A model generated the notes under the pieces. It did no database searches, was not told where the DNA came from, and saw nothing but the letters and a program-made list of their open reading frames with translations. Below are positions 2,765 to 44,052 of a stretch of 64,000 nucleotides of DNA, one piece after another (position 1 is the stretch's first letter; each line of letters begins with the position of its first letter). The position numbers were made by a program, and so were the translations under genes. Origin of the DNA: Candidatus Moraniibacteriota bacterium (GTDB taxonomy: Bacteria; Patescibacteriota; Minisyncoccia; Moranbacterales; UBA2206); contig JBAQNU010000029.1 of assembly GCA_049304095.1 (NCBI GenBank), forward strand, positions 98,222-162,221, in the 5' to 3' direction.

Positions 2765-3541
2765 CTAATTCAAATGCGTAGGTTCTTGATCTGCCGTAAT
2801 TGCCTTCCACATAAATTCAAAAAGTTCCTTATGCAAGCGGATGATATTTTTGTTTTCGATTACCATTGCTATAACCGGCAAGGTGGTTTGGTGGATGAGG
2901 ATTTTGCTTGGTGTAATGGTAATGGAAGCCGAGAGCTGCATATCTTGTGGAAAAATTTTTATCTGCAAATTATATATCGCTTCGTTTTGTTTATATTTTC
3001 TGGCAATTTCCGAATCTTGGAGTAAAAGACGGTTATTGAGCTTTTTTTGTGCGCGTTTTTCCACAAAATTTTCAAAAAATCTTTGGTCTTCTGACATCCA
3101 CTTGGCGGAATCGCTGATAACCCAATAATCCTCTCCGAATTTCACTTCATCTAGGAGATCTAGATGGATATTTTTCACCGCTTCCACGCCTTCGTAGTAT
3201 TTAATTAGACTGCTTCCACCTTCTGCGCTATAGAGCGCCTTGAAATCAACTAATGATTCTTGAAGCTCTTTTTTCTTATTATCCATTATTCTTTCCAATT
3301 TTTCCGGATTTTCCGCAGAAAAAAGGGTTTTCCAGCCGATCTGCTCAACTTTCATGAGGCCTAATTGCTTTAATGATTCAACCGCCGAATAAACGGTGGT
3401 TCTTTTGACTTCTGAGGCCTTGGAAATGGCTAGAATAGTGGTTTTTCCCAAAGAAAGCGCGCTCAAATAAACTAGCGCTTCATTATCGCTAAGCCCTAAA
3501 TTAAGCAGTACTTTGTATAGTTTATTGTCCATATTTGGCAT
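2765..3541 (-). CDS. TrmB-like HTH transcriptional regulator (paralog 1 of 5)
   Basis: N-terminal wHTH pattern LGLSDNEALVYLSALSLG...ISKASEVKRTTVY shared with four other ORFs in the window. Divergent from the small-ORF module. Confidence 0.6.
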   Translation of the reverse strand: MPNMDNKLYKVLLNLGLSDNEALVYLSALSLGKTTILAISKASEVKRTTVYSAVESLKQLGLMKVEQIGWKTLFSAENPEKLERIMDNKKKELQESLVDFKALYSAEGGSSLIKYYEGVEAVKNIHLDLLDEVKFGEDYWVISDSAKWMSEDQRFFENFVEKRAQKKLNNRLLLQDSEIARKYKQNEAIYNLQIKIFPQDMQLSASITITPSKILIHQTTLPVIAMVIENKNIIRLHKELFEFMWKAITADQEPTHLN

Positions 3542-3543
3542 TA

Positions 3544-3560
3544 TGTCCGATAATCGGACA
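3544..3560. promoter_or_regulatory. perfect 8-bp inverted repeat TGTCCGAT-A-ATCGGACA immediately upstream of the TrmB-like start; candidate operator
   Basis: Palindrome read directly. Sits in the divergent promoter region. Confidence 0.4.
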
Positions 3561-3665
3561 ACTATTATTATCCTATATTAAAGTAAAAAATTAGTCAATA
3601 TATTTCTTTGTCGACATAAGTGACACAAGGGCGGTTTTGGTATATACTACGCTGTTAAGATAAAA

Positions 3666-3722
3666 CACCAAAAAAAAGACCAACCCAATCTTAACAAAAT
3701 CTAACCATTAACAAAAAAACCT
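3666..3722 (+). promoter_or_regulatory. conserved 5-prime leader (GTTAAGAT...ATCTTAAC stem, CTAACCATTAAC box), copy 1
   Basis: Same leader upstream of 5766 and 23398(-). Preceded by a TATACT -10 box. Confidence 0.5.
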
Positions 3723-3932
3723 ATGCAAATGCTATTAAACAACGGAGTGGTGATAAATGGTGCCCCAGTGATGTCAGAAAGAGCTAGAAAGTACCTTAGT
3801 CAGTTTTGGAGCTTTCCCTCAAAAGAAGAAATTGAGAAAGAAAAAGAAAAATACTACGTTTTTGACTATAAAGGAGAATGGACAAACAAAAGAGAAGAAA
3901 ACGTTAATGATGAACTAGAGATTCTCATATAG
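3723..3932 (+). CDS. conserved small protein (69 aa), family with 5766..5969 and 23195..23398
   Basis: Three paralogs (MxMLLNNG..ENAP..SE..RKYLxQFW..PSKEE). Third-position synonymous differences between copies indicate a coding constraint. No obvious SD. Confidence 0.55.
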   Translation: MQMLLNNGVVINGAPVMSERARKYLSQFWSFPSKEEIEKEKEKYYVFDYKGEWTNKREENVNDELEILI

Positions 3933-3940
3933 ATTCTAGT

Positions 3941-3996
3941 GGAAGACAAAAAAAAGAATTTCTGTCTTCCCTAGAGTTTATCTAAATCATTAGATA
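3941..3996 (+). promoter_or_regulatory. two conserved hairpins (GGAAGACA...TGTCTTCC and TATCTAA..TTAGATA) between small ORF and cargo; attenuator/terminator-like
   Basis: The same paired hairpins occur after the other two small-ORF copies. Compensatory changes preserve the stem. Confidence 0.45.
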
Positions 3997-4104
3997 GCTC
4001 AATAGTTATTTAAAAATTTAATATTCAGCTAAGACCTAGATTCGCATAGTGCGGATTCATTAGATGCTAAATTGGCTGAGAAAAATTAAAAAAGGAGAAG
4101 AAAA

Positions 4105-4503
4105 ATGAAAAAAGAAATCATCGATTTTATCAGAGCTATTGCAAATGTGCGTAGAAATCATGGAAATTGCACGTGTTTTGAGGCTGCAGCCGTGTTTCCC
4201 TATTTTATGGCCATATCGCAGGAGGATATTGATTTTTACAACCAGAAACTGATGGAGATCCTTCGCGCCGAAGGACTATTCAAAGAGTATCCTCATCTTG
4301 AAAAAGAAATGGAAGAGGATTTTGAATATTTAGGTGTAAATACAACCGAACATCCAATAATGGGCAGGGTAAGAAGTTGCTTTCTTCGGAATAAAAATGA
4401 GGTGGACGAAAAGGCAAAAAATGATTTTCATCTTTTTACTAATCCTTATTGTGCTGAGATGGACACGTTGATATTGAGGCTTATCCAAGTTTTTTCCAGC
4501 TAA
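4105..4503 (+). CDS. hypothetical protein (variable cargo of module 1)
   Basis: ORF with an AAGGAG SD. No recognisable domain. Confidence 0.45.
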   Translation: MKKEIIDFIRAIANVRRNHGNCTCFEAAAVFPYFMAISQEDIDFYNQKLMEILRAEGLFKEYPHLEKEMEEDFEYLGVNTTEHPIMGRVRSCFLRNKNEVDEKAKNDFHLFTNPYCAEMDTLILRLIQVFSS

Positions 4504-4669
4504 AACCACCAAAGCCGAATTTGTTAACACACAAATTCGGCTCCATTTTTGAAATCATTTCATTGACCACAAAAAACAAAGCGGAAAGCTTATCACAGCT
4601 CTCCGCTTTTTTTCTTTTTAATCTAAATCGTGGGACCAGCCCCGCCTCGGCGGGACGACCAAGAGATTA

Positions 4670-4746
4670 TGGTGGGACCAGCTGGATTCGAACCAGCGAC
4701 CAAGAAATTATGAGTTTCCTGCTCTAAACCGCTGAGCTATGGTCCC
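4670..4746 (-). tRNA. tRNA-Met/Ile2 (anticodon CAT), CCA encoded
   Basis: Cloverleaf read from sequence: GGGACCATAGCTCAGCGG...CTCATAA...GGTTCGAATCC...CCA. Confidence 0.8.
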
Positions 4747-4768
4747 GAATTAGCGAACTAGATTTAGT

Positions 4769-5557
4769 CTATCCTTTGTTCGTGATTATGTCTAGACTTG
4801 GTGTGGGATATTGTTTTAATTTGATTTCTGGCAGATTGTCCCAGGCCAATTCAAAGATCCATCTTAGAGTGTTATTGATTTCTGCGCTTTCTATGATTAC
4901 CGCCATCTGTTCTTTACTGGAGATGAGAGCGACTTTTTGATGACCATAGATATCAACTTCGACCGAGAATGGATAGCGGTCTTTTTTAATTAGCTTGCAA
5001 GACCGCAGATGCTGTTGATCCCGGGTGATGATACTCTCAGACAGATATTTTGTTTCTGGCAGAATCGCCCGGACGCGGATATTTTTTTTGACTCGTTTTT
5101 TAATATACCACTCAATCCAATCTTCACCCAGAATATTCCTCACATCTTCTGATCCGAAAGCGAGAATTTCTCCGGAATAGCGTAGCGCGTCATCATAGGC
5201 CTCCATCAAGCCTTCTTTCCCTTCATAAAATTTAATCTTTGGCTTCATCCCGCGGACGTTATAGATGGATTTTAGTTGTGGTAGGATTTCTGAAAACAAA
5301 GCCTCTTTCTTTTCCAGATCCTTTTTGATTTTTTCTGGATCTTCGCCGATAAATAGTCTTTTGGCGCCATTTAGCGTTTCTGCCACCAACCCGGCATTTT
5401 TGAGATCCAAGAGAATGTCATAGGCGGTTGTTCTTTTGATATTGGCCTTTTTGGAAATATCAATGACACTGGCTCCGCCCAATTCCAAGGCTGCGAGATA
5501 TACATCGGCTTTTCGACCAGTGAGCCCAAATTGTTCAAGAGTTTGTTTAGTGTCCAT
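4769..5557 (-). CDS. TrmB-like HTH transcriptional regulator (paralog 2)
   Basis: N-terminal LGGASVIDISKKANIKRTTAY wHTH. Paralogous to 2765..3541. Confidence 0.6.
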   Translation of the reverse strand: MDTKQTLEQFGLTGRKADVYLAALELGGASVIDISKKANIKRTTAYDILLDLKNAGLVAETLNGAKRLFIGEDPEKIKKDLEKKEALFSEILPQLKSIYNVRGMKPKIKFYEGKEGLMEAYDDALRYSGEILAFGSEDVRNILGEDWIEWYIKKRVKKNIRVRAILPETKYLSESIITRDQQHLRSCKLIKKDRYPFSVEVDIYGHQKVALISSKEQMAVIIESAEINNTLRWIFELAWDNLPEIKLKQYPTPSLDIITNKG

Positions 5558-5676
5558 ATAGCCTCATTTTAGCATATGTCGATAGTTTCCGTCAACATTT
5601 GAGAATGGTAATATCAACAAAAAGGCTTTAATAAAGAATATTATTGAAAATAACCGATAATGCTTGACGTGTATAA

Positions 5677-5705
5677 TTGACAATTGCGCCATTTCGCAGT
5701 ATAAT
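5677..5705 (+). promoter_or_regulatory. sigma70-like promoter TTGACA-17-TATAAT for small-ORF module 2
   Basis: Hexamers read directly. Leader follows. Confidence 0.5.
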
Positions 5706-5707
5706 GG

Positions 5708-5765
5708 GCTGTTAAGATAAAAAGCCAAGGCTAATCTTAACAAGCTAACCATTAACCAAAAATCT
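5708..5765 (+). promoter_or_regulatory. conserved 5-prime leader, copy 2
   Basis: GTTAAGATAAAAAGCCAAGGCTAATCTTAACAAGCTAACCATTAACC. Confidence 0.5.
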
Positions 5766-5969
5766 ATGAAAATGCTTTTGAATAATGGAACCGTAATTGA
5801 AAATGCTCCAGCTGTATCAGAAAAAACCAGAAAGTATCTCAATCAGTTCTGGAAGCTTCCCTCTAAAGAAGAAGTAGAAAAGAAAAAAGAGCAATATTAT
5901 GTTTCTGAGTATAAGGGAAAATGGAAAAAAGAGAAGGAAGTCGTAGTTGAACAAGAAATCACAATATAG
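5766..5969 (+). CDS. conserved small protein (67 aa), near-identical to 23195..23398
   Basis: 3 nt differences over 204 nt versus copy 3. Confidence 0.55.
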   Translation: MKMLLNNGTVIENAPAVSEKTRKYLNQFWKLPSKEEVEKKKEQYYVSEYKGKWKKEKEVVVEQEITI

Positions 5970-5978
5970 GTTCTAGCT

Positions 5979-6030
5979 GGAGACAGAAATGTTTTCTGTC
6001 TTCTCTAGAGTTTATCTAAAGTTTTGGATA
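5979..6030 (+). promoter_or_regulatory. paired conserved hairpins after small ORF (copy 2)
   Basis: GAGACAGAAA...TTTCTGTCTTC then TATCTAAAG..TTGGATA. Confidence 0.45.
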
Positions 6031-6080
6031 GCTCGTGCAGTTCTTTTAAAATCACCTACCTCAAAAAAAGGAAATGAAAT

Positions 6081-6437
6081 ATGAAAAAGTTTACTCTTAT
6101 TATTGGTCCAGTGGGGATTTTCGATCGAAAGACAGAAAAACTTCGGAAAAAAGCGGAATCAGTAGTAAAAATTCATTATGATGGGTCAATAATTGAAGAC
6201 CATGGGTCTAGGCGCTGGATGGGCCATAACTGGATGACTTGGCAAAAAGAAGAGATTAAAAGTCTCATAATTGAACCGATTGTGGTGTTTGTGGGTTTTG
6301 CGAGTTGTTCTTGCTGTACGAAGTATGAAACATGGGACATGGTAGTTGAATTAAGTAAGGATTTGAAAAAAATGGGGAAAAGAGTTTCTTTTATTGATAA
6401 CAATAATAATAAATCTGTATTTAGAAAGAGGAGGTGA
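6081..6437 (+). CDS. hypothetical protein (variable cargo of module 2)
   Basis: ORF with an SD. Cys-rich CSCC motif. No recognised domain. Confidence 0.4.
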   Translation: MKKFTLIIGPVGIFDRKTEKLRKKAESVVKIHYDGSIIEDHGSRRWMGHNWMTWQKEEIKSLIIEPIVVFVGFASCSCCTKYETWDMVVELSKDLKKMGKRVSFIDNNNNKSVFRKRR

Positions 6438-6682
6438 TTGAAAAATAAAGGTTTTTGGGAAGTTTATCCTTGGCCACCACGGCCAAAAAACTTCCCACAT
6501 TTTCTCGAGTTCGTCTGAAGTTTCAGGCGGATTCAAGCGAAATGAAGTTCATTAAAAATCAAATATCAGCTAAGGCCCTCTCCAGAATTATTTCGGAGGC
6601 TGTCAGGCAGTAATGTCTGATGTATCAAAGAGTGGAGCTACACTGGCTGAAAAATAGTTTTTGTAGAAAAAGGAGTTTGAAA

Positions 6683-7129
6683 ATGAGTGGAAGAGACAAA
6701 ATTACAGAACAGTTGGCCTCTAATGGTGTAAGTATGGATGAGATTCGGAGTAACTTTGAAGGTCTTATTAGGTGTTATCGCAACAATGAGTTTAGGAGCG
6801 ATTACTCCTTCGTGGAAATAAAAGTGGTAGAGAAAAAAGAATTTGGGTGGGTAGTTTTAATTGAAGATTACTCAAACCAAACATCATGCACTGTTGTAAG
6901 GTCTGAGCTGTTTGTCGTAAGCGAGGGAAAAATAATATCAAAAAGCAAACGAGTTTTTGTGGGGGTATGGAATAAGTGTCCAAAAGAGTGGACACTGGAA
7001 TCGATTTCAGAAACCGATGACGCTTTCATCGTTATCGGGAAGCCTTTTGGAAAGGAGGTGTTGAAAAAATCGGATAAGTTTTTTCCGCGTTGCCCACTTT
7101 CAGGCAAGTGGGAAGAGTTCTTTGTTTAA
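6683..7129 (+). CDS. hypothetical protein
   Basis: ORF. Start chosen at the ATG after the AAAGGAG SD. Confidence 0.4.
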   Translation: MSGRDKITEQLASNGVSMDEIRSNFEGLIRCYRNNEFRSDYSFVEIKVVEKKEFGWVVLIEDYSNQTSCTVVRSELFVVSEGKIISKSKRVFVGVWNKCPKEWTLESISETDDAFIVIGKPFGKEVLKKSDKFFPRCPLSGKWEEFFV

Positions 7130-7254
7130 CTACAAACCGACTTCGAGCCAAGTCGTAAAACATGGCTTTTTTTATTTGTAATAAAACGAAAAAACACCCC
7201 ACATAATATTGAGTGCATAAATAATTATGACTGCAAGTGAAGTGAATTTTTTTG

Positions 7255-16425: not shown

Positions 16426-16875
16426 CTACATATAAATGTATTCAGGGTAGCTTAATTCGTATTTGATATTGCACAGTATTTGTGCAATATCTTTGGCTGA
16501 GTTTGCCTTAAACTCAACCAATTCATAGTGATTGTCATCCCAGTTTGAAACTACAAATTTCCAATCAGCGCGTTTTTTCAGTATAGCATCTAATTTTCCC
16601 CTTATCGCTTTTAGCATCGGTGGGAACGCTTTTTCGGTTGAGGTGTATTCAATAACACGCAGGTTCCCATCTCGAAACCTTTTGGTTTTCTCTACTTGCT
16701 TGAATAATGAATCGATCGTTTTTGGGTCTCCATTGCTACTAGAAAGAGTGATCTTTCCATCTTGCTCATCTATGGTGAAATGGGCAACTATGTATCTTTG
16801 GTCGTCAGGATTGCGTCTCCATTCGCATGTCGTTACCGCTACATTAAATCCTACTTCTACTGTTAATTCACTCAT
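16426..16875 (-). CDS. hypothetical protein (cargo expressed from a leader related to the small-ORF modules, no small ORF)
   Basis: Start chosen at the ATG after the GGGGAGGAGG SD. Upstream TTGACA-17-TATACT followed by GTTGTTAAGAT...CTAACCAT motifs. Confidence 0.45.
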   Translation of the reverse strand: MSELTVEVGFNVAVTTCEWRRNPDDQRYIVAHFTIDEQDGKITLSSSNGDPKTIDSLFKQVEKTKRFRDGNLRVIEYTSTEKAFPPMLKAIRGKLDAILKKRADWKFVVSNWDDNHYELVEFKANSAKDIAQILCNIKYELSYPEYIYM

Positions 16876-17124
16876 GATTCCTCCTCCCCGATATTTAGCT
16901 TTGGCCTCGGGTGCGGGCAAGTATATTGCTATTTATTTGTTAAGGTTCAGTTTTGTCAGATGGTTAGTTTTTACTAATTCATCTTAACAACGTAGTATAG
17001 CAAGTTTTTGGCAAAATGTCAATAATCACGTCAATATAATTTATTATTTAACTGAAAAAGCCTAATATAACGCTAACATATTGACTATTTTTGTGGCTAT
17101 GCTATAATGTAAATGTTGACATAA

Positions 17125-17901
17125 TTGGCGACAAGTAATATTATGCTTGAAAAAGAACTGCAAAATGCTGGTTTAAGCGAGCGAGAATCTAAGGTATATT
17201 TGACTTGTCTTGAAATGGGGGAGACGAGCATCGCAAAATTGGCCAAAAAAGCCCAAATAAAGAGGACAACAGTCTATCTTTTAATTGGATCTCTGCAAGA
17301 AAAGGGCCTTATTGGCCTCATCAAGAAAGGCAATAAGACTTTGTATATTTCGGAGGATCCACGTAAAATTGCAGAAAAGATGGAGCAGAGGAAGTCAGCT
17401 ATTGAAAAGATTTTGCCAGAATTATTGTCGATGACGAATTTTACTAACATAAAACCGCGTATAAAGTATTTTGAAGAAAAGCGGGCGGTTGAAGATGTAT
17501 ATCGAGATACGCTGCTATATCCTGATCAAGAAATACTTTCTTGGTTTCCCGCCCTGCTTGTCCAGGATGATAAAGATTTTTTTAATGATTATTATATTAA
17601 AAAAAGACTAGAGAAAAAGATTTGGGTGAAGGCGATTGCGCCTGACACTGTGGATATGCGAGAATATTTCAATCGCGACAAAACAGAATTGCGTCAAACA
17701 AAACTAATTTCTCAAGATATCTTTAATATTGAAGTTGGAATTTTGCTTTATGGAAAAAGTAAAGTAGGAATTGTATCCTATGAAGAAGGCATGGGACTTA
17801 TCATTGAAAGCCCAAAAATTTATAAAAGCTTAAGAAATATTTTTGACCTGGCGTGGAATTCGTTGCCGGAAAATAAACAACAGCAATCTATTGTTGAATA
17901 A
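17125..17901 (+). CDS. TrmB-like HTH transcriptional regulator (paralog 3)
   Basis: N-terminal LSERESKVYLTCLEMGETSIAKLAKKAQIKRTTVY. Confidence 0.6.
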   Translation: MATSNIMLEKELQNAGLSERESKVYLTCLEMGETSIAKLAKKAQIKRTTVYLLIGSLQEKGLIGLIKKGNKTLYISEDPRKIAEKMEQRKSAIEKILPELLSMTNFTNIKPRIKYFEEKRAVEDVYRDTLLYPDQEILSWFPALLVQDDKDFFNDYYIKKRLEKKIWVKAIAPDTVDMREYFNRDKTELRQTKLISQDIFNIEVGILLYGKSKVGIVSYEEGMGLIIESPKIYKSLRNIFDLAWNSLPENKQQQSIVE

Positions 17902-21499: not shown

Positions 21500-21555
21500 T
21501 GGATAAAATAAAAAAAGCCATGTTTAGAGACTTGGCTTGAAGTCTTTTTTGTCTA
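21500..21555 (-). terminator. repeated terminator-containing element (AGACTT-CAAGCC-AAGTCT ... AGCCATGTTTAGAGACTTGGCT), copy 1
   Basis: Near-identical to 22598..22655. Confidence 0.45.
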
Positions 21556-21726
21556 CACCTCCTTTTTGGGTGTTTTGGTCAGATGGCGACCAAGGCCGTG
21601 CGAGAGATTTCGCGTGATGATCGCAATAACAGCGTGTTTCAGGCTGTTTTTTCGCATATTTTTATATGCTTCGCGAGCATCCTCTTCGGAACCATTTCTG
21701 ATTTTGTCGAAGAGCTCATCATCCAT
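21556..21726 (-). CDS. possible small ORF (57 aa) overlapping the stop of 21719..22504
   Basis: Read by hand (MDDELFDKIRNGSEEDAREAYKNMRKN...). AGGAGG-like SD. Below the size cut of the ORF track. Confidence 0.25.
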
Positions 21727-22504
21727 TTTCTATCACCTCCTTTCCGAGTAAGTATGCAATTCTTGGTGAATATTTCTCTTCAACCATTCTAATATATTTC
21801 TCATCTCTTGTCAGGAGATGGAGAAAATACATTGATCTGGCTGTTGGGCGAACGGCTAGGGTTTCCTGCGCCAGTCTGATTGCCTCTTGTTCTTCGTTCA
21901 CCAAAAGCAAATAGCTGGATAGGTTTTCTTTGGTGGCAATCATTCCTGGGCAAATCTTTTCCGCTTCGGCTAGAATCCTTATTTTGCAATAGGGATTTTT
22001 TTCCAGCCAAGCCTGGGAGATCATTCTTGAAGCTGTAACTGCTTCCCAAAAAGGAAGCGCCTTAATCTTTGGGTGAGAAACGTTCCTTTCGAATGGAATG
22101 GAAAGTGGTTCAAATTGTTTTCCATCAACGACGAGCACACTGTGTGGCTCCTCATACATCAGGAGCTCCTCGAAAAAGGAATCTGGCTGGTCAGGGTTTC
22201 CCCGAAGCATATCCAAAAGGATATTGCGAAAAAAATCCTCCAGTACTTCGCCAAACATGATTTTGGCATTCGGGAATTCTTTTTCCACAACCGCTCCGGC
22301 TTGAGCCACCTTTCCCAGACAACCGCGATTATCTAGGCTCAGGTTGTAATTTGCAATCTGGTGCTGGTCGATACTTTGACCAGTGGAAAAATCAAAAGGG
22401 AAATTTTTCAGTAGCGCAAACGCGGCGCTGAAATTTTTTTCATATTTTTTTCCTTCGACTAGTCTGTGAGCGATTTCCCGGACTTCCTGAACTATTTTTA
22501 ACAT
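21719..22504 (-). CDS. hypothetical protein
   Basis: ORF only. Confidence 0.4.
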   Translation of the reverse strand: MLKIVQEVREIAHRLVEGKKYEKNFSAAFALLKNFPFDFSTGQSIDQHQIANYNLSLDNRGCLGKVAQAGAVVEKEFPNAKIMFGEVLEDFFRNILLDMLRGNPDQPDSFFEELLMYEEPHSVLVVDGKQFEPLSIPFERNVSHPKIKALPFWEAVTASRMISQAWLEKNPYCKIRILAEAEKICPGMIATKENLSSYLLLVNEEQEAIRLAQETLAVRPTARSMYFLHLLTRDEKYIRMVEEKYSPRIAYLLGKEVIENG

Positions 22505-22597
22505 ACCGCACCCCCTTCGTTGAATTTTGTAGGAACTTCAAAGCCAAGGCTTCGACTCAATATGGTAGCATTATTTGTTTGGATTGTCCAGCCAGTA

Positions 22598-22655
22598 AAA
22601 TAAAAAAAGCCATGTTTAGAGACTTGGCTTAAAGTCTTTTTGTTTACAATTCCTT
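22598..22655 (-). terminator. repeated terminator-containing element, copy 2
   Basis: Near-identical to 21500..21555. Immediately downstream of 22678..23094(-). Confidence 0.45.
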
Positions 22656-22677
22656 TTAAGCTTGTAAAGTGTTATTT

Positions 22678-23094
22678 TTAAACCTCAAGTTCGTTTTCTC
22701 CGAATCCGAAGCGAATGAAAAGTTTTCCTTCTGCTTTTCGTATAGAGGTTACTTTTGTAGACATGCGAAACCCAATCACTCCGTCATGGGTGGTTCTATA
22801 CAGACACATCCCGTACCGATCTCCAATGACACGAGGGTCGTTTCCTGATAAATCTACAACAACCGCGAACCTTGTGGAATAGTCTTCGGTTGATCCTCCA
22901 GATCTTCCACTAAAACAATTGGTGGACCATGCTTGTTTTGCAACAACCATGATGTCATCTTCTCTGCTCACTTGATACATACCGCCGTTGTCGGTGCCGA
23001 ATAATCCCCTGACAAATGCTGCGGTTGCAGTGTCTGTCAGTTTTTCTGCGGCACTTTCCAAGTCCGCCAATCTTACTTGTTCCGATGTTTCCAT
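22678..23094 (-). CDS. hypothetical protein (variable cargo of module 3), GC-rich
   Basis: ORF with a GAGGAG SD. Follows the conserved hairpins. Confidence 0.4.
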   Translation of the reverse strand: METSEQVRLADLESAAEKLTDTATAAFVRGLFGTDNGGMYQVSREDDIMVVAKQAWSTNCFSGRSGGSTEDYSTRFAVVVDLSGNDPRVIGDRYGMCLYRTTHDGVIGFRMSTKVTSIRKAEGKLFIRFGFGENELEV

Positions 23095-23133
23095 CTTTTA
23101 TCTCCTCATTCTAAGTTTTTAAATAACCAGCCT

Positions 23134-23186
23134 ATCTAACCAATTTAGATAAACTCTAGAAAAGACAGAAAACATTTCTGTCTCCA
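23134..23186 (-). promoter_or_regulatory. paired conserved hairpins after small ORF (copy 3)
   Basis: TATCTAACCAATTTAGATA and AGACAGAAAACATTTCTGTCT. Confidence 0.45.
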
Positions 23187-23194
23187 GCTAGAAC

Positions 23195-23398
23195 CTATAT
23201 TGTGATTTCTTGTTCAACTACGACTTCCTTCTCTTTTTTCCATTTTCCCTTATACTCAGAAATATAATATTGCTCTTTTTTCTTTTCTACTTCTTCTTTA
23301 GAGGGAAGCTTCCAGAACTGATTGAGATACTTTCTGGTTTTTTCCGATACAGCTGGAGCATTTTCAATTATGGTTCCATTATTCAAAAGCATTTTCAT
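23195..23398 (-). CDS. conserved small protein (67 aa), copy 3
   Basis: Near-identical to 5766..5969. Confidence 0.55.
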   Translation of the reverse strand: MKMLLNNGTIIENAPAVSEKTRKYLNQFWKLPSKEEVEKKKEQYYISEYKGKWKKEKEVVVEQEITI

Positions 23399-23478
23399 AG
23401 ATTCTTGGTTAATGGTTAGTTTTGTTAAGATTAGCCTTGGCTTTTTTGGCTTTTTATCTTAACAACGTAGTATACACC
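23399..23478 (-). promoter_or_regulatory. conserved 5-prime leader, copy 3 (with a 9-bp AAAAAAGCC duplication)
   Basis: Reverse complement matches the copy 2 leader. Confidence 0.5.
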
Positions 23479-23656
23479 AATTTAAGCTAATCGTCAACAA
23501 ATATGCCTAAAAATGGTGGAAATAATCTACTAAAAATAGTCATATTAAGCTTAAAATAAAGCAACAAGTATTTTGATAACAGAATAGTTGTCAAAAACGT
23601 TGACTATTATGCTAAATCGTGCTAAAATAGGAACATAAGCAATAAATCGCGCAATT

Positions 23657-24436
23657 ATGGAACATTTGATTGAACCACTGAAAAACTTAGGACTAAGCGA
23701 AAAAGAAGTGCTGGTCTATCTGGCATTACTTCAACTTGGCTCAGCGACGCCCTATCAGGTTGCCAAAAAATCGGGGATTAAAAGGCCAACAGCCTATGTG
23801 ATTGCGGAAGAATTGGTAAAAAAAGGTTTGGTTGTGCATATTCCTGGCGAAGAAAAAAAGCGCTATATTGCCAAAAACCCGGATGCTTTTTTTGAAGAGC
23901 AAGAAGAAAAACTGGCAATGGCGAGAAAAATCTTGCCAGAACTGCGCTCATATCAGAAAAATGTGGCGGAAAAACCGAGCATATTGTATTTCGAAGGGCT
24001 TGAGGGATTGCATCAAGCCTATGAGTATCGGCAGAAAGAGCTGCATGGAAGGGAGATCGTGGGATTTTTTGCATCTAATGAGGACTCAACGCCTGAAGTG
24101 ACGCAGTATTTTGTGAAATGGAATGAATATCGAGAAAAACATAATACGCCGGTGCGGGGAATTACAGTCGATGCGCCGGAGCTTTTGCCTTATGCTAAAT
24201 TTTTTGGAGAAGGCGTGGGAGCTATGACACTTAAATTTTTGCCTCGCAATATGTATGGTTCTAAAATTTCCATCGAATCTTGTGATAATCAATTTGTGCG
24301 CATATTCCTTTTTGAAAGCGTGGAAACGCTAATTATTGAGTCGCCAAAATTTGCAGTGGCCGTAAAAGAAATCTTTGAATTAGTCTGGAAATCGACGGAG
24401 GGGAAATATGAAAAGCCGGCGACGTGGGTTAGGTAG
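23657..24436 (+). CDS. TrmB-like HTH transcriptional regulator (paralog 4)
   Basis: LGLSEKEVLVYLALLQLGSATPYQVAKKSGIKRPTAY. Confidence 0.6.
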   Translation: MEHLIEPLKNLGLSEKEVLVYLALLQLGSATPYQVAKKSGIKRPTAYVIAEELVKKGLVVHIPGEEKKRYIAKNPDAFFEEQEEKLAMARKILPELRSYQKNVAEKPSILYFEGLEGLHQAYEYRQKELHGREIVGFFASNEDSTPEVTQYFVKWNEYREKHNTPVRGITVDAPELLPYAKFFGEGVGAMTLKFLPRNMYGSKISIESCDNQFVRIFLFESVETLIIESPKFAVAVKEIFELVWKSTEGKYEKPATWVR

Positions 24437-33623: not shown

Positions 33624-33627
33624 CAGA

Positions 33628-33950
33628 GCCGAGTTAGCTCAGTGGTAGAGCAGAGGACTGATTTTCGGTCCGCTCTGAAGTAATTCAGAGATGAGAATTG
33701 GATGAATTCGAGGAAGCCTAAAACTAATTTTATTAGAAATGGTAATCTCGAGCTAAGCTTCAAAGGGCGTAAGGTTTTGAAGAAAGTGTAGAGACTAGCA
33801 AGTGAGTCCCAACAATAATCTTGCATTAGCGTCCGATATCCTATTTTGCTAAGTAGCAAAAGGATAATGAAATAGTCCGATCCTTGGGGAAACTCAAGAA
33901 AAATGAGTAGGAAAATCCTTGTGTCCCCGGTTCAATCCCGGGACTCGGCA
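33628..33950 (+). tRNA. tRNA-Phe (GAA) interrupted by a ~251-nt intron between positions 33 and 34
   Basis: Exons GCCGAGTTAGCTCAGTGGTAGAGCAGAGGACT / GAAAATCCTTGTGTCCCCGGTTCAATCCCGGGACTCGGCA closely match a canonical bacterial tRNA-Phe. Confidence 0.7.
33660..33910 (+). other. putative group I self-splicing intron in the tRNA-Phe anticodon loop
   Basis: 5-prime exon ends in U paired with a G of the internal guide GGUCC (P1 GGACU/GGUCC). Intron ends in G. R-like AGAGACUAGC and S-like AAUAGUCCG elements. No ORF. Confidence 0.55.
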
Positions 33951-34010: not shown

Positions 34011-34694
34011 ATGAGAAAAGATAAAGTCAAAGCGCTAGCGCTTAGAAAAAAAGGTTTTAGCTATAATGAAATTAGCAAAAAACTAGAAGTTCCTAAAAGC
34101 ACGCTAAGTTATTGGTTGGCAGATGTAGTAATTTCACAAAAAGCGAAAAACAGAATTGCAAGTAGGGTTTTTGCAGGAAGTGTGAAGGGGCTGATTGAGA
34201 GAAATAAAAATCAAACGGCACTAGCGAAAGAAAGAGCAAAAGCTATTCGAGAAATTGCAAAGAAAGAAGTTAGAAATTTAATGAAAAACAAATTATTTTT
34301 GGTGGGCATTTCCCTGTATTGGGCGGAGGGATATAAAAAGGGTGCTTATGGAAGTAAATGGAAAGCAGTGGATTTTGCCAATTCCGATCCTGAGTTAGTG
34401 AAAATAATGATGAATTTTTTCAGAAAAGTTTGCAGAGTAGAAAGTGAAAAGATAAAAGTTCAGCTAATTGCTCATAAAAATATTGATATGGACGAAGCGG
34501 TGAGCTATTGGTCTGGGCTTATGAAATTATCGAAAAGTCAGTTCATGAAAACAAGTTGTGCGGTGAGTAGCGCGAGCAAAGGCAAGAGAAACAAAAACAG
34601 TTTGACGCACGGAACAGTTCATATTAGGATAAATGATGTAAGGCTATTTTTTCGGATTATTGGCTGGATCGATGGATTGAAGTTGTATATATAG
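34011..34694 (+). CDS. HTH-containing protein with a single LAGLIDADG-like motif (LFLVGISLYWAEGY); candidate free-standing homing endonuclease
   Basis: N-terminal HTH (GFSYNEISKKLEVPKSTLSYWL). Motif resembles the LAGLIDADG core. Position next to the intron-containing tRNA. Confidence 0.35.
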   Translation: MRKDKVKALALRKKGFSYNEISKKLEVPKSTLSYWLADVVISQKAKNRIASRVFAGSVKGLIERNKNQTALAKERAKAIREIAKKEVRNLMKNKLFLVGISLYWAEGYKKGAYGSKWKAVDFANSDPELVKIMMNFFRKVCRVESEKIKVQLIAHKNIDMDEAVSYWSGLMKLSKSQFMKTSCAVSSASKGKRNKNSLTHGTVHIRINDVRLFFRIIGWIDGLKLYI

Positions 34695-41271: not shown

Positions 41272-41982
41272 TTAGGCGACCTTTCGGAAAAGTACAGAAT
41301 GAATTTTTATGCCGTTGATTTCATCTTCCGGGCAATTTTCCATGTAGTCGACGACCTTCAGAGATGGAAACTCAGCGATGAGTTTTTCGATTGTGAAACA
41401 GCGCATATAATGTTTGTCCCACAGACAGAAATCTTTGCCTTTTTTGACTTTGAATTTTTCTGGCAAAGGATCGGCGAATTGCGAGCTGATTAGATATCCG
41501 CCGACTTCGAGATGATCCAATATATTCTTTTTGTATGCAGTCAAATAGGCGCGTCTGATATGGTCCATTACAGACCAGTCAATTATCACATCGAATTTAC
41601 AAGGCCCAAATAATTCAGTAATTGTATTCGGTACTGACATATCTCGGTAATCAAGATACAGTTTATCATCTTTGCAATATTTCTCGAACTTAATTTTGCA
41701 GTGGTCCAAGGCGATTTTTGAAATATCAATTCCAAATACAAAGTGCCCCTGATTTAAGAAATATGTTGCATTACGTCCGTCAGCACCAATCCCAATGTCT
41801 AGAATTTCTCTGTAATATTGAGGATTCTTTGGTCGAATTTTCTTGGATAGCGTTACCATCGACGGGCTGGGAGTTGTTGCCCAGCCATATCCTCTCTCGA
41901 GTCGTGTTTCTGGATCCCGATACGCTTCGTCGTAAAAATCTTTTTCATTTTTAAGGTGCTTTGGTTTCATTTTAGTCATCAT
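41272..41982 (-). CDS. class I SAM-dependent methyltransferase
   Basis: Motif I ILDIGIGADG. Confidence 0.6.
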   Translation of the reverse strand: MMTKMKPKHLKNEKDFYDEAYRDPETRLERGYGWATTPSPSMVTLSKKIRPKNPQYYREILDIGIGADGRNATYFLNQGHFVFGIDISKIALDHCKIKFEKYCKDDKLYLDYRDMSVPNTITELFGPCKFDVIIDWSVMDHIRRAYLTAYKKNILDHLEVGGYLISSQFADPLPEKFKVKKGKDFCLWDKHYMRCFTIEKLIAEFPSLKVVDYMENCPEDEINGIKIHSVLFRKVA

Positions 41983-42400
41983 CCTTTCCGCCGTCTCTGG
42001 CGATTACATCCGTAAGTTTCAATTCGGGAAAGAGGTTCTGATAGAAGGTCAAGATTTCACCCTTGATTTCATTGAGAACTTTTTGAGGTGCTCGGCCATA
42101 GCGTGCAGAGTAATCATGAATTAGTAACGTGTTCTCATAGCAATCTACGCTTCCTCCACCTATGGTGCGTTCGATGCAATGATTAATAAAATACCGACGA
42201 TGTACCACGGCTTCTTTCATGTTCTTGTGATATATGTCTGCATATCCATCTTTTGACCAAATAATTTTTGGTGCCAACAATACTAACGGTGGCTGATCTT
42301 CCATGAAAAACAAGAGATATTTATCTGGCATTTTAGGAAATGGGTCGCATTCTTTTGCAAACCGCCAAAAGTCATCCGGCGCTAATCTAATAATATCCAT
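41972..42400 (-). CDS. hypothetical protein co-transcribed with the methyltransferase (11-nt overlap)
   Basis: ORF. Overlapping stop/start. Confidence 0.4.
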   Translation of the reverse strand: MDIIRLAPDDFWRFAKECDPFPKMPDKYLLFFMEDQPPLVLLAPKIIWSKDGYADIYHKNMKEAVVHRRYFINHCIERTIGGGSVDCYENTLLIHDYSARYGRAPQKVLNEIKGEILTFYQNLFPELKLTDVIARDGGKDDD

Positions 42401-42511: not shown

Positions 42512-42650
42512 AGCAATGAGAAATTGATGTATAATGGGTCTAGGATAAGCGAAATTTGGTTTTGGTGTCACTTTGTGGTTGACGGGCGTTAGGTGACTAT
42601 TCGGCGATGTAGTGCATAATAGGCATAATTTTTTATTAAAAAATATTTTT

Positions 42651-43397
42651 ATGGAACAAGAACTATTAGCTTTGGGGCTGACTTGGAATGAAGTTAAAGC
42701 ATATAAGAGTCTTATGAAACTGGGCGAGACGCAAGTTGGTGGAATTATCACTGATCTCAAGATTCATCGCCAGATTGCCTATAACGCCCTTGACGCACTG
42801 GAAAAGCGCGGGATGGTGACGAAAACGAGCAAGAACAAAGTTCAACATTATAAAATAGTCGATCCAGAAGTGATTGTGGAAAATGTCAAAAAGCAGGAAG
42901 TTTTGGCAGAAAGGTTGGCGCGGACGATCAAGCACGAGATGAAAAAAAGTCGGCATGAGCATGAAATTAGTCTCTATAATGGCCGAGAAGCGGCTCGGCG
43001 ATTTTTTATCCAGTCATTTAAGAAATTCCCAGTTAGCGCTACTACCTACATCATGGGGGTGCCCGTTAATGACTATACTGAAGCAATGGGGGCGGATTTT
43101 CTGGCTGGCCCCTATAATAAGATTCGCAATCAGAGAGATATCCGTTCTCGATTACTGGTAAGTGAGAGAATGCGTGAGGAAAACAAGGACTATGAAAAGC
43201 TAGTTAATCCGGTTTTGCGCGAGACACGCTATTTGCCCTATCAAGTACTCAATCCAATCTCCACTCTCATTTGGGAGGATCACATTTCTTTTATTTCTAT
43301 AAAGCCAGAATTCTTTATTATTGATATTTTGAGCCAAGCTTTTCGGGACTCGTATAAGGAGCATTTTGATATGCTCTGGAAGATGGCGAAAAAATAG
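42651..43397 (+). CDS. TrmB-like HTH transcriptional regulator (paralog 5, most divergent)
   Basis: LGLTWNEVKAYKSLMKLGETQVGGI..IHRQIAY. Same overall length and layout. Confidence 0.45.
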   Translation: MEQELLALGLTWNEVKAYKSLMKLGETQVGGIITDLKIHRQIAYNALDALEKRGMVTKTSKNKVQHYKIVDPEVIVENVKKQEVLAERLARTIKHEMKKSRHEHEISLYNGREAARRFFIQSFKKFPVSATTYIMGVPVNDYTEAMGADFLAGPYNKIRNQRDIRSRLLVSERMREENKDYEKLVNPVLRETRYLPYQVLNPISTLIWEDHISFISIKPEFFIIDILSQAFRDSYKEHFDMLWKMAKK

Positions 43398-43514: not shown

Positions 43515-43581
43515 CAAATTTTTCTAAAAGCTATTGTTATGGTATACTTATGGAGTGATACTAACTAATAAGTATACCACT

Positions 43582-44052
43582 ATGAGAAAAAGAAGTTGGA
43601 CAGAGGACGAATTAAAAAAAGCAGTTAAATTATCCACAAGCGTTAGGCAGGTTTTAAAAAGATTAAAGCTGAAAGAAGCGGGTGGAAACTATTCTCAAGT
43701 AAAAAAGTTTTTAGAACTATATAAAATAAACACAAAGCATTTCACGGGAAAGGGCTGGAATAAAGGAATGCAAGGAATAGGAAAGCCCCGGAGAAAGTTA
43801 GAGGAAATTCTAAAAAAGAACACTGACTTTCAAAGCTTTAAATTAAAGAAAAGATTATTTTTTGCAAAACTAAAGCCAAAACATTGTGAGGAGTGTGGGT
43901 GGCATGAGATGTCTGATGATGGTAGATTGCCACTAGAACTTGATCACATCAATGGCGACAGTAAAGACAATCGATTGGAAAACTTGCGAGTGCTTTGTCC
44001 TAATTGCCATAGTCTAAAACCAACACACAGAGGAAGAAATCGAAAAAAATAA
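43582..44052 (+). CDS. HNH endonuclease located between two tRNA genes
   Basis: ELDHINGDSKDNRLENLRVLCPNCH HNH motif. Confidence 0.7.
   Translation: MRKRSWTEDELKKAVKLSTSVRQVLKRLKLKEAGGNYSQVKKFLELYKINTKHFTGKGWNKGMQGIGKPRRKLEEILKKNTDFQSFKLKKRLFFAKLKPKHCEECGWHEMSDDGRLPLELDHINGDSKDNRLENLRVLCPNCHSLKPTHRGRNRKK

Follow-up and report, generated by a model that had tools for sequence, protein, structure and literature searches.

The 64-kb stretch of Candidatus Moraniibacteriota DNA analyzed here (hereafter the window) carries three operons that diverge from genes for TrmB-family regulators and share one leader, in which a 5'-terminal stem-loop, a small open reading frame (ORF) and two RNA hairpins precede cargo genes that differ from copy to copy. 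This leader is a real, lineage-specific and previously undescribed regulatory cassette, composed of a micro-protein gene and a structured RNA, that recombines independently of regulator and cargo. It is directly supported by its recurring parts, the selection on its coding sequence, the covariation of its RNA, its linkage to TrmB genes, its mosaic history and the diversity of its cargo. We further propose, at what we judge to be about an even chance, that it is a translated leader cassette which spreads by gene conversion, specifies a micro-protein with a function of its own and gates how far expression reads through into accessory genes.

The window was compared with other Moraniibacteriota contigs. 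Scans of genomes and metagenomes and contig look-ups gave 30 loci (L numbers), which represent 25 distinct cassettes after removal of duplicates. The complete modules in the window are located at 2765-4503, 4769-7129 and 21553-24436, the third on the minus strand. Their order is a TrmB gene, a divergent sigma-70-type promoter, a 5' stem-loop, a box, an ORF of 67-69 amino acids, two hairpins and cargo genes led by a Shine-Dalgarno (SD) sequence; a conserved 3' terminator element is present in two of the three. The copies can be aligned over approximately 450 nt, after which similarity is lost entirely. An earlier note on this DNA had listed the regulator, promoter, leader, small ORF, hairpins and cargo, and all of these were recovered in place, but its list lacked the 3' element and an RNA element X, both of which are conserved. 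Its tally of three modules with a small ORF likewise stands, though two further TrmB modules without the small ORF had been overlooked. The features of the three complete modules are as follows.

2765..3541, minus strand: module 1 regulator, TrmB family with TrmBL2-like domain layout, 258 amino acids (PF01978, 49.6 bits)
3620..3648, plus strand: module 1 promoter, GTGACA-17-TATACT (10/12 match)
with the 3620..3648 promoter: module 1 candidate operator, palindrome TGTCGAC..GTGACA across the -35 (read from the sequence)
3654..3695, plus strand: module 1 5'-terminal leader stem-loop, GTTAAGAT..ATCTTAAC (exact search, covariation)
3701..3712, plus strand: module 1 box CTAACCATTAAC, consensus CTAAnCATTAAS (cassette alignment)
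3723..3932, plus strand: module 1 small ORF, micro-protein of 69 amino acids (coding selection)
3932..3978, plus strand: module 1 hairpin 1, with the last base of the stop codon as first paired base
3979..4016, plus strand: module 1 hairpin 2 (3979-3996), conserved GCTC (3997-4000) and GTTATTTAAAAA tract
4025..4079, plus strand: module 1 further RNA element in the leader, X (inner hairpin closed by the stem CAGCTAAG..TGGCTG)
4105..4503, plus strand: module 1 cargo, orphan of 132 amino acids with AAGGAG SD (no Pfam or PDB match)
4513..4552, plus strand: module 1 intrinsic terminator (terminator scan)
4769..5557, minus strand: module 2 regulator, TrmB family with TrmBL2-like domain layout, 262 amino acids (PF01978, 42.9 bits)
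5677..5705, plus strand: module 2 promoter, TTGACA-17-TATAAT (12/12 match)
5711..5741, plus strand: module 2 5' leader stem-loop
5766..5969, plus strand: module 2 small ORF, 67 amino acids
5969..6034, plus strand: module 2 hairpin 1 (5969-6012), hairpin 2 (6013-6030) and GCTC (6031-6034)
6081..6437, plus strand: module 2 cargo 1, orphan of 118 amino acids
6566..6650, plus strand: element X, intercistronic copy between the module 2 cargo genes (z = -3.2)
6620..7129, plus strand: module 2 cargo 2, orphan, with probable start ATG 6683 (148 amino acids) behind AAGGAG
7131..7175, plus strand: conserved 3' terminator element, GACTTCGAGCCAAGTC..CATGGCTTTTTTT
23657..24436, plus strand: module 3 regulator, TrmB family, 259 amino acids (PF01978, 63.1 bits)
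23424..23497, minus strand: module 3 promoter TTGACG-17-TATACT (23497-23469) and 5' leader stem-loop (23463-23424)
23195..23398, minus strand: module 3 small ORF, 67 amino acids, two amino acids unlike module 2
23125..23195, minus strand: module 3 hairpins 1 and 2 (match to covariance model R1 at 23109-23200, 83.9 bits)
21553..23094, minus strand: module 3 cargo of 138 (23094-22678), 261 (22504-21719) and 57 amino acids (21726-21553)
22598-22645 and 21506-21553, minus strand: module 3 3' elements (cores 22636-22621 and 21544-21529), each ending a cargo sub-block

The small ORF, which ranges from 66 to 69 amino acids, is open in all 25 distinct copies, while the other two frames contain 102 and 169 stops. 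Pairwise differences at codon positions 1, 2 and 3 amount to 0.27, 0.20 and 0.46, indels are in frame, and the median dN/dS of 0.17 (with dS of about 1.5) indicates purifying selection. The codon-position pattern, the dN/dS and the in-frame indels rule out a structured non-coding RNA in place of the ORF. The claim that the small ORF encodes a real protein is thereby borne out, and coding-type conservation, the lack of which in a larger alignment had been named as a sign against it, is present across the 25 copies. The absence of an SD sequence in front of it was also correctly noted but is not unusual here, as an SD-like motif is found near a plausible start in 18 of 52 long ORFs of the window. 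All 24 first cargo genes with a callable start have a strong SD (AAGGAG/GGAGG).

Residues 3-45 of the micro-protein are conserved (MxLNNG..P..SEKTRKYLxQFWxFPSKEExEKEKEKYY), with 25 invariant columns in an alignment of 10 sequences (A2), and the last ~20 residues are variable. The protein is hydrophilic and rich in lysine and glutamate, and has no signal or hydrophobic segment. It constitutes a family so far annotated only as 'hypothetical protein': no match was found in Pfam, NCBIfam, PADLOC or the PDB, including a profile search against the PDB. Among 5.8 billion proteins it forms 7 clusters (at 90% identity), and both clusters with a source name are from Candidatus Moraniibacteriota; a profile search in 1.84 billion representatives found 13. 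Distant homologues keep the conserved 45 residues, and no hairpins are found there with the covariance model of hairpins 1 and 2 (R1), suggesting that the micro-protein has a function of its own. The conservation pattern thus points to a functional micro-protein rather than a mere leader peptide, and the 'leader peptide' of the earlier note does not fit, given that the first 45 residues are strongly conserved even where the hairpins are missing. As the ORF is under purifying selection and the copies within a genome tend to be alike, the micro-protein is probably also trans-acting. It would probably act on a partner common to all modules, for which the TrmB-family regulators are the obvious candidates.

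Several further ORFs touch on this family. An alternative small ORF starting in the loop of hairpin 1 was rejected, as its AUG occurs in some copies and is not conserved. Hydrophobic, F/L-rich ORFs lie antisense to the small ORF in the window (5564-5842, minus strand, and 23210-23419, plus strand) and are probably the mirror of the K/E-rich coding sequence. P0014 (L073 4001-6124), a protein of 707 amino acids from a large-genome bacterium, has eight tandem repeats resembling residues 9-31 of the micro-protein (..SDDEKRQLQQFW..), and was judged uninformative because its genomic context is unrelated. At L031 (5250-6482) and on a JGI 3300075153 contig, proteins with a PEP-utilizers mobile domain (PF00391), one of them fused to a helix-turn-helix domain, follow distant homologues of the small ORF.

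The RNA parts are conserved as structures. An exact search of the 64 kb for the leader stem GTTAAGAT..ATCTTAAC gives three occurrences against 0 expected, and two pairs of this helix (helix 1) have changed on both sides. A role as DNA operator is unlikely, as the spacing of the arms varies from 15 to 26 nt and G.U pairs are tolerated. The hairpin core CTAGAGTTTATCTAAA has three exact matches in the window. In the 25-copy alignment 95.9% of cells are paired and 10 pairs have both sides changed, which was reached by none of 500 shuffles; in slid controls 35-52% were paired. Compensated changes include TCTAG/CTAGA to TCCAG/CTGGA, GAAGACAG/CTGTCTTC to GAAAACAG/CTGTTTTC and TATCTAA/TTAGATA to TGTCTGG/CCAGAGA, and one U.G pair is invariant in 25/25 copies. 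Covariation of the hairpins, for which the earlier note had suggested a covariance-model search, is therefore present. It can be seen only in the larger alignment; the difference in hairpin 1 between the window copies, read as compensatory in the earlier note, turns out to be an indel in one arm.

Model R1 was scanned over 261 kb. Known copies score 82-102 bits on the sense strand and 18-30 bits on the antisense strand, and L030 scores 58 bits, indicating that the hairpin structure belongs to the transcript. Each of the 28 sense matches is located directly 3' of the small ORF (that at L005 94-184 stands at the contig end, with the ORF beyond view), and no stand-alone match occurs in the 261 kb. 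In each of the 25 copies, hairpin 1 opens with a pair that involves the final base of the stop codon. In Rfam, the window and 17 loci gave only tRNAs and one group I intron at the gathering score, and a search of window 3540-7200 at an E-value threshold gave nothing relevant, the best match being freshwater-2 at 25 bits against a cut-off of 49.9.

The regulators of the three complete modules score well above the Pfam cut-off for PF01978 (25.6 bits) and are only 25-31% identical to one another. Wherever the sequence upstream of a cassette is long enough, it holds a divergent TrmB gene (24/24). Five distant homologues of the small ORF also have informative upstream sequence, and four of them, with one exception, show this arrangement; a further homologue, P0020, was left out of this count because its contig begins at the ORF. 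The cassette-linked regulators fall into at least 10 orthogroups, each with the small ORF. This type of regulator comprises more than 415 clusters, the named ones including Parcubacteria and Moranbacteria, and is far commoner than the small ORF.

An AlphaFold2 model of the module 2 regulator (mean predicted local distance difference test, pLDDT, 86.9) shows a winged helix-turn-helix (wHTH), a long helix and a C-terminal alpha/beta domain, as in TrmB and TrmBL2. These are also the top Foldseek matches (TrmBL2 5bpd, E 1e-13; TrmB 3qph, E 1.5e-9), although differing orientations of the domains keep the TM-scores at only ~0.4. For the C-terminal domain, the matches include PLD3/PLD4 chains, and it looks PLD-like in the model. 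At 258-262 amino acids, the regulators lack the sugar-binding subdomain of TrmB (full-length ~340 amino acids). Orthology to the sugar-sensing TrmB/TrmBL1 is not indicated, as the NCBIfam equivalogs score 17-38 bits instead of 500-650 and match residues 1-115 only. Compared with TrmBL2 and TrmB of the Thermococcales (PDB 5bpd, 3qph), the regulators thus share a wHTH, a coiled coil and a C-terminal domain, with a length of ~260 amino acids like TrmBL2. In contrast to those proteins they are bacterial, from the Candidate Phyla Radiation (CPR), 14-18% identical to the archaeal proteins and without sugar-binding subdomain, and 64 kb contain at least five divergent paralogues, every one next to a target operon of its own. 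Cassettes have the -10 box in common, and candidate operator palindromes overlap or flank the -35 and appear to differ among regulator types. Promoter and regulator-specific palindromes together suggest that every TrmB paralogue acts on the divergent promoter of its own module. No paper linking TrmB with Patescibacteria or CPR was found in the literature searched.

Regulator and cassette have different histories. Their pairwise identities are nearly uncorrelated (Spearman 0.17), and discordance occurs in both directions. Copies 2 and 3 of the window are 96.6% identical at the nucleotide level in the cassette and only 32% identical at the amino acid level in the regulator, whereas copy 1 of the window and L014 share 96.5% of regulator residues and only 69% of cassette nucleotides. 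A sliding window along the latter pair gives approximately 90% identity in the regulator, 70% from the leader to most of the cargo and 95% at the 3' end of the cargo, a profile that indicates a replaced segment. L020 has the cassette of copy 1 with a single amino acid changed, but its promoter and the gene that follows are different; the similarity begins at the -10 box and stops in the hairpin-2 loop. Finally, the module at ~17 kb in the window is the orthologue of L023 (regulators 94% identical) minus ~310 nt (300 gapped columns in alignment A5). The gap corresponds to the box, the small ORF and hairpins 1 and 2; the 5' stem-loop and a pre-cargo hairpin are kept, and the leader loop holds CTAACCAT, the beginning of the box. 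At its C-terminus the small ORF comes in types that tend to go with genome or contig and not with regulator type, which suggests partial concerted evolution.

These observations are hard to reconcile with an ordinary family of paralogous operons, in which whole operons of TrmB and small gene were duplicated and the cassette is a residual similarity, neither portable nor regulatory. Ten TrmB orthogroups each with a small ORF, and the wide distribution of this TrmB type in Parcubacteria, would agree with such a history. Besides the two-way discordance, the non-coding hairpins are more conserved than synonymous sites and covary, and the mosaic boundaries are sharp; we consider this explanation very improbable. 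Based on the sequence comparison, the stretch that begins with the transcription start and ends with hairpin 2 is best described as a self-contained, exchangeable leader cassette. The portable 5' cassette in front of unrelated cargo that the earlier note had proposed is supported by the uncoupled identities, by L020, by the L023 orthologue and by the at least 15 cargo families described below. The variable breakpoints make homologous recombination or gene conversion the simplest mechanism. In that case the conserved ends of the cassette would serve as substrate for gene conversion, so that one cassette came to be combined with different regulators upstream and different cargo downstream.

Could the cassette instead be a small mobile element, similar to a miniature inverted-repeat transposable element (MITE), or an integron-like site-specific cassette served by the adjacent Xer-type recombinase, with the hairpins as folded recombination sites? 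The ~310-nt block that is present or absent at an orthologous site, the near-identical cassettes in different contexts with a right boundary at the hairpin-2 loop in two independent cases, and the tyrosine recombinase gene beside module 1 (1820-2761) would be consistent with this. So would an imperfect inverted match (I2), in which the 5' arms of leader stem (CTGTTAAGATAAA) and hairpin 2 (TTTATCTAAATAG) show 85% complementarity over 13 nt. In L023 the pair lies at 4938-4950 and 5243-5255, corresponding to window 5709-5721 and 6011-6023, and coincides with the ends of the exchanged unit. I2 does not covary across copies and the changes in hairpin 2 are compensated locally, so it was rejected both as a long-range pairing and as a terminal inverted repeat. 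No target-site duplication is visible at the indel junction, every case seen has the same orientation and the same place after a promoter under TrmB control (all sense R1 matches likewise follow a small ORF in one orientation), and other breakpoints lie inside the leader and the cargo gene, as homologous recombination would give. Moreover, the cassette protein is under purifying selection, the strand-specific G.U pairs fit the transcribed strand, and no copies were found on viral contigs. The recombinase is XerA/C/D-like (~236), scores 131.6 against an integron-integrase cut-off of 265 and is located beside only one module. We therefore regard a mobile element as very unlikely, if slightly less so than the paralogous operons.

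An integron was discarded because the recombinase is Xer-like and attC is lacking, although a resemblance to integron cassettes exists: variable, mostly orphan genes on a common upstream platform, structured block ends and a tyrosine recombinase nearby. Unlike integrons, the modules have no integrase of the integron type, their 3' element resembles a terminator, with a hairpin and a U-run, and the breakpoints fit homologous recombination. A phage origin was also rejected, as no protein relative occurs on viral contigs and the 36 exact 15-mer matches there have no hairpin context. The Xer-type gene (plus strand) directly abuts module 1, and the same synteny is seen in L012 and L021.

The cargo genes are variable. 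First-cargo genes belong to at least 15 families, mutually unrelated by BLASTP, so that they do not form the one known family that the earlier note had held up as a counter-indication, and most have no Pfam match. That cargo differs in each copy was correctly observed, with the correction that the '169 aa' gene of module 2 probably starts at ATG 6683 and encodes 148 amino acids. The window cargo has no relative in Pfam, NCBIfam, PADLOC or the PDB, and the 132-residue cargo of module 1 forms only 2 clusters among 5.8 billion proteins. Recognizable cargo at related loci consists of one SLOG/LOG-like protein, one protein of the radical-SAM type and, in several modules, receiver (REC) domains that stand alone. 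Cargo also differs at the same chromosomal site when strains are compared, as the earlier note had proposed to check. At the site between the genes for the CCA-adding enzyme and lactamase_B, the window has genes for 138+261+57 amino acids, L001 for 91, L015 for 99+57+259, and L029 for 137+102+261 plus one whole extra module. At the site from Xer to membrane protein/FtsH, the window has two modules, L012 one module and a gene for 171 amino acids, and L021 one module with three REC-like genes.

Strain-variable, lineage-restricted cargo with one SLOG-domain and several receiver-domain proteins, together with toxin-antitoxin genes near one distant homologue, might bring to mind polymorphic toxin/immunity or anti-phage defense cassettes with a shared expression site and swappable effectors, an analogy also drawn in the earlier note. 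The analogy is not supported. No toxin, immunity or defense domains were found in the window proteins or in the cargo of related loci, genes are not paired in the pattern of toxin and immunity, and the cargo has no shared N-terminal trafficking domain and is not fused to the conserved ORF. A defense system was rejected specifically because PADLOC gave generic wHTH (TrmB) matches and one weak cargo match (E 0.011). There is thus very little to recommend this explanation.

Downstream of the cassette the modules contain further RNA elements. The 3' element CACAAAnnGACTTYRAGCCAAGTCnnnAAACATGGCT(T)n occurs in 16 copies in the 223 kb over which it was counted (3 in the window, 13 at other loci), without exception oriented like the small ORF, and in 15 of them the position is downstream of a cassette at the end of the cargo block. 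Its predicted fold is that of a terminator: the hairpin GAGCCA..TGGCTC, with a T-run after it, overlaps a small stem (C/A)GACTT..AAGTC(G/T) in which one base change is compensated. L008, L009 and L011 have other bases in place of the T-run and a longer stem. In module 3 the element follows the gene for 138 amino acids and again the 261+57 pair, which gives the cargo the look of two blocks stacked on each other. Between hairpin 2 and the SD of the cargo, optional RNA modules are found repeatedly, in differing combinations. Element X, with a closing stem CAGCUA/UGGCUG around variable inner hairpins, is found outside the window in the leaders of L008, L009, L012, L014, L020, L022 and L024, and element Y (GCCGCCUGUAUCGGCGGGGUAGAAAUGGAGCAAGGAG) in L008, L011, L013, L019, L021, L022 and L024; neither has an Rfam match at threshold.

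The arrangement of these parts suggests how the cassette might work. A sigma-70-type promoter would give an mRNA that starts, within a few nt of the predicted start, with the stem-loop; stem-loops near the start of a transcript are common stabilizers. The mRNA would be translated into the micro-protein of 66-69 amino acids and continue through the two hairpins, sometimes further RNA modules, and the SD-led variable genes, often ending at the conserved terminator element. A ribosome finishing the small ORF would cover or melt the 5' arm of hairpin 1, as this hairpin starts in the stop codon. The invariant GAG in its 3' arm, once freed, could pair with the conserved CUC after hairpin 2, converting the short hairpin 2 into a longer helix followed by a U-rich tract (GUUAUUU), and translation of the small ORF would in this way gate the transcription or translation that reaches the cargo. 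The conserved (R)CTC is unexplained by hairpins 1 and 2 themselves. An extended hairpin 2 (GAG with CUC, one bulged U, 10-11 bp), with AGUUAUUUAAAA after it, can form in 24/25 copies; with the first 15 nt from the stop codon masked, it appears in the RNAfold prediction for 19/25. This model explains the conservation of both CUC and U-rich tract and has the geometry of a trp-type attenuator, so the 'attenuator' idea of the earlier note plausibly fits as far as geometry goes. We infer the switch, the direction of its effect and the trans function of the micro-protein.

Several observations weigh against this reading of the cassette. The GAG is invariant, and covariation therefore cannot probe the extended hairpin 2. 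In a terminator scan hairpins 1 and 2 were not called as intrinsic terminators, the U-rich tract being weak and offset. A competing hairpin 3 (UUAGAUAGC/GUUAUUUAA) is predicted in only 9/25 copies and was dropped as a conserved part. The conservation of 45 residues goes beyond the need of cis-acting leader peptides, the small ORF contains no regulatory codon runs, and its AlphaFold2 model (a beta-hairpin and two helices; pLDDT 63, predicted TM-score 0.23) is too weak for a fold search. Cassettes swap among regulator types, which argues against protein-protein pairing specific for each paralogue. Two modules of the window have no cassette, so that it is not essential for control by TrmB. Their locations are as follows.

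16426..17901: cassette-less TrmB module (the ~16.4-17.9 kb module) with regulator 17125-17901 (plus strand) and cargo 16426-16920 (minus strand), same promoter and 5' stem-loop
41272..43397: second cassette-less TrmB module (41.3-43.4 kb) with regulator 42612-43397 (plus strand) and cargo 41972-42400 and 41272-41982 (both minus strand)

Much of this would be expected if the small ORF were simply the first gene of the operon and acted only in trans, for instance as a TrmB co-factor or anti-repressor in feedback, with hairpins that stabilize or process the mRNA and set the ratio of micro-protein to cargo, and no translation-dependent switch. In addition to the strong constraint on the protein and the terminator that the scan did not call, distant relatives without detectable hairpins still have the family together with a divergent TrmB gene, a 5' stem-loop with 3' stem-loops is a typical layout for a stable mRNA, and small-ORF copies tend to be alike within a genome. 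This alternative leaves unexplained the start of hairpin 1 in the stop codon in 25/25 copies, as well as the conserved CUC and GUUAUUU tract. It also has to accommodate the modules without cassette, and no structural or sequence relative was found that hints at an activity. We hold it to be possible, though clearly less probable than the gating of read-through by a translated leader.

The cassette has points in common with several known systems. Attenuators of the trp/his/pheA type have a short translated leader ORF, a stop codon abutting the 5' arm of a hairpin, and mutually exclusive helices. The cassette resembles them in its translated leader ORF (as seen from the coding selection), in a stop codon at the hairpin 5' arm, such that a ribosome would occlude that arm in 25/25 copies, in possible exclusive downstream helices and in structural genes with their own ribosome-binding site. 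In contrast to these attenuators, the ORF here has 66-69 codons and 45 conserved residues, and regulatory codon runs in an otherwise unconstrained peptide were not found; there is no canonical GC-rich stem with U-run, the cargo is not biosynthetic, and the cassette is multi-copy and exchangeable. A C-terminal ribosome-arrest motif of the kind known from SecM, MifM, TnaC and Erm leaders is not indicated either, as the ~20 C-terminal residues beside hairpin 1 are the most variable part.

The control regions prgX/prgQ-IRS1 of pCF10 and traA/iad-t1/t2 of pAD1 combine a divergent regulator, a small ORF and one or two hairpin terminators with regulated read-through. As in these enterococcal pheromone plasmids, a divergent regulator is followed here by a small ORF first and then by hairpins before the downstream genes. 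There is no sequence relationship, and pCF10 and pAD1 have a precursor of 22-23 amino acids for a secreted inhibitor peptide, an RRNPP-type regulator and an antisense RNA, none of which is seen in the cassette. More generally, RRNPP or Rgg-SHP systems do not fit, since the micro-protein is not secreted or hydrophobic and the C-terminal domain of the regulator matches structures of the PLD family and not TPR proteins. Likewise, the features of a MITE were not found beyond the one weak inverted match (I2). In the TF-smORF modules of linear plasmid-like phages, a transcription factor (TF) gene lies beside a gene for a small protein (smORF) under its control (Silpe et al., 2023; PMC10432266). The cassette shares with those modules the adjacency of the two genes, and in both cases the logic rather than the sequence is common to the modules. 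However, TF-smORF modules are phage-borne, their small protein inactivates a cI repressor, and they have no conserved RNA hairpins or variable downstream cargo, whereas the modules described here are chromosomal. Overall, neither the micro-protein nor the cassette RNA matched a described family in Pfam, Rfam, the PDB, PADLOC or the literature searched.

The cassette recurs within genomes of this lineage. Two cassettes side by side, like in the window, are found on several contigs, one 322-kb metagenome contig has five, and the metagenome-assembled genome (MAG) ELA543 has five on four contigs. An NCBI Moraniibacteriota MAG (locus tag prefix WA064) encodes a protein 100% identical to the 132-residue cargo of module 1, and a further small-ORF variant, P0002, originates from the same MAG; the source genome therefore probably has at least four cassettes.

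Bacteria of the CPR/Patescibacteria are uncultivated and have very few transcription factors, and to our knowledge almost nothing is known about their gene regulation. Against this background, a single 64-kb window contains five TrmB-type modules, three of which place an undescribed protein-plus-RNA leader cassette before lineage-restricted orphans. If the gating is true, the cassette would be a compact, transplantable regulatory part and a marker for the variable accessory genes of these bacteria, maybe including genes for host interaction. It would also be a natural case of a conserved expression platform whose cargo turns over by homologous recombination and not by dedicated recombinases. 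One could go further and envisage a self-homogenizing module of protein and RNA, in which the micro-protein is the universal partner of the TrmBL2-like regulators and the hairpins are a translation-sensing gate. Such a module might be the main circuit for strain-specific accessory (possibly host-interaction) genes, with turnover of cargo through gene conversion at the conserved 5' part and the 3' element. This extended proposal is speculative, and we think it rather improbable as a whole.

Outside the modules, the window contains a tRNA gene at 33626-33950 (plus strand; acceptor GCCGAGT..ACTCGGCA, anticodon loop CTGAT|..|AA), probably tRNA-Ile GAU, that is split by a group I intron (Rfam match 33650-33899, 75 bits); the host tRNA was not called by ARAGORN. 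Just downstream, an ORF of 227 amino acids (34011-34694, plus strand) has the motif 'LYWAEGYKK' and could be homing-endonuclease-like. A further ORF of 172 amino acids (43534-44052, plus strand), between tRNA-Cys and tRNA-Leu(taa), has an HNH-like C-terminus (CEECGW..HINGD..N..CPNCH).

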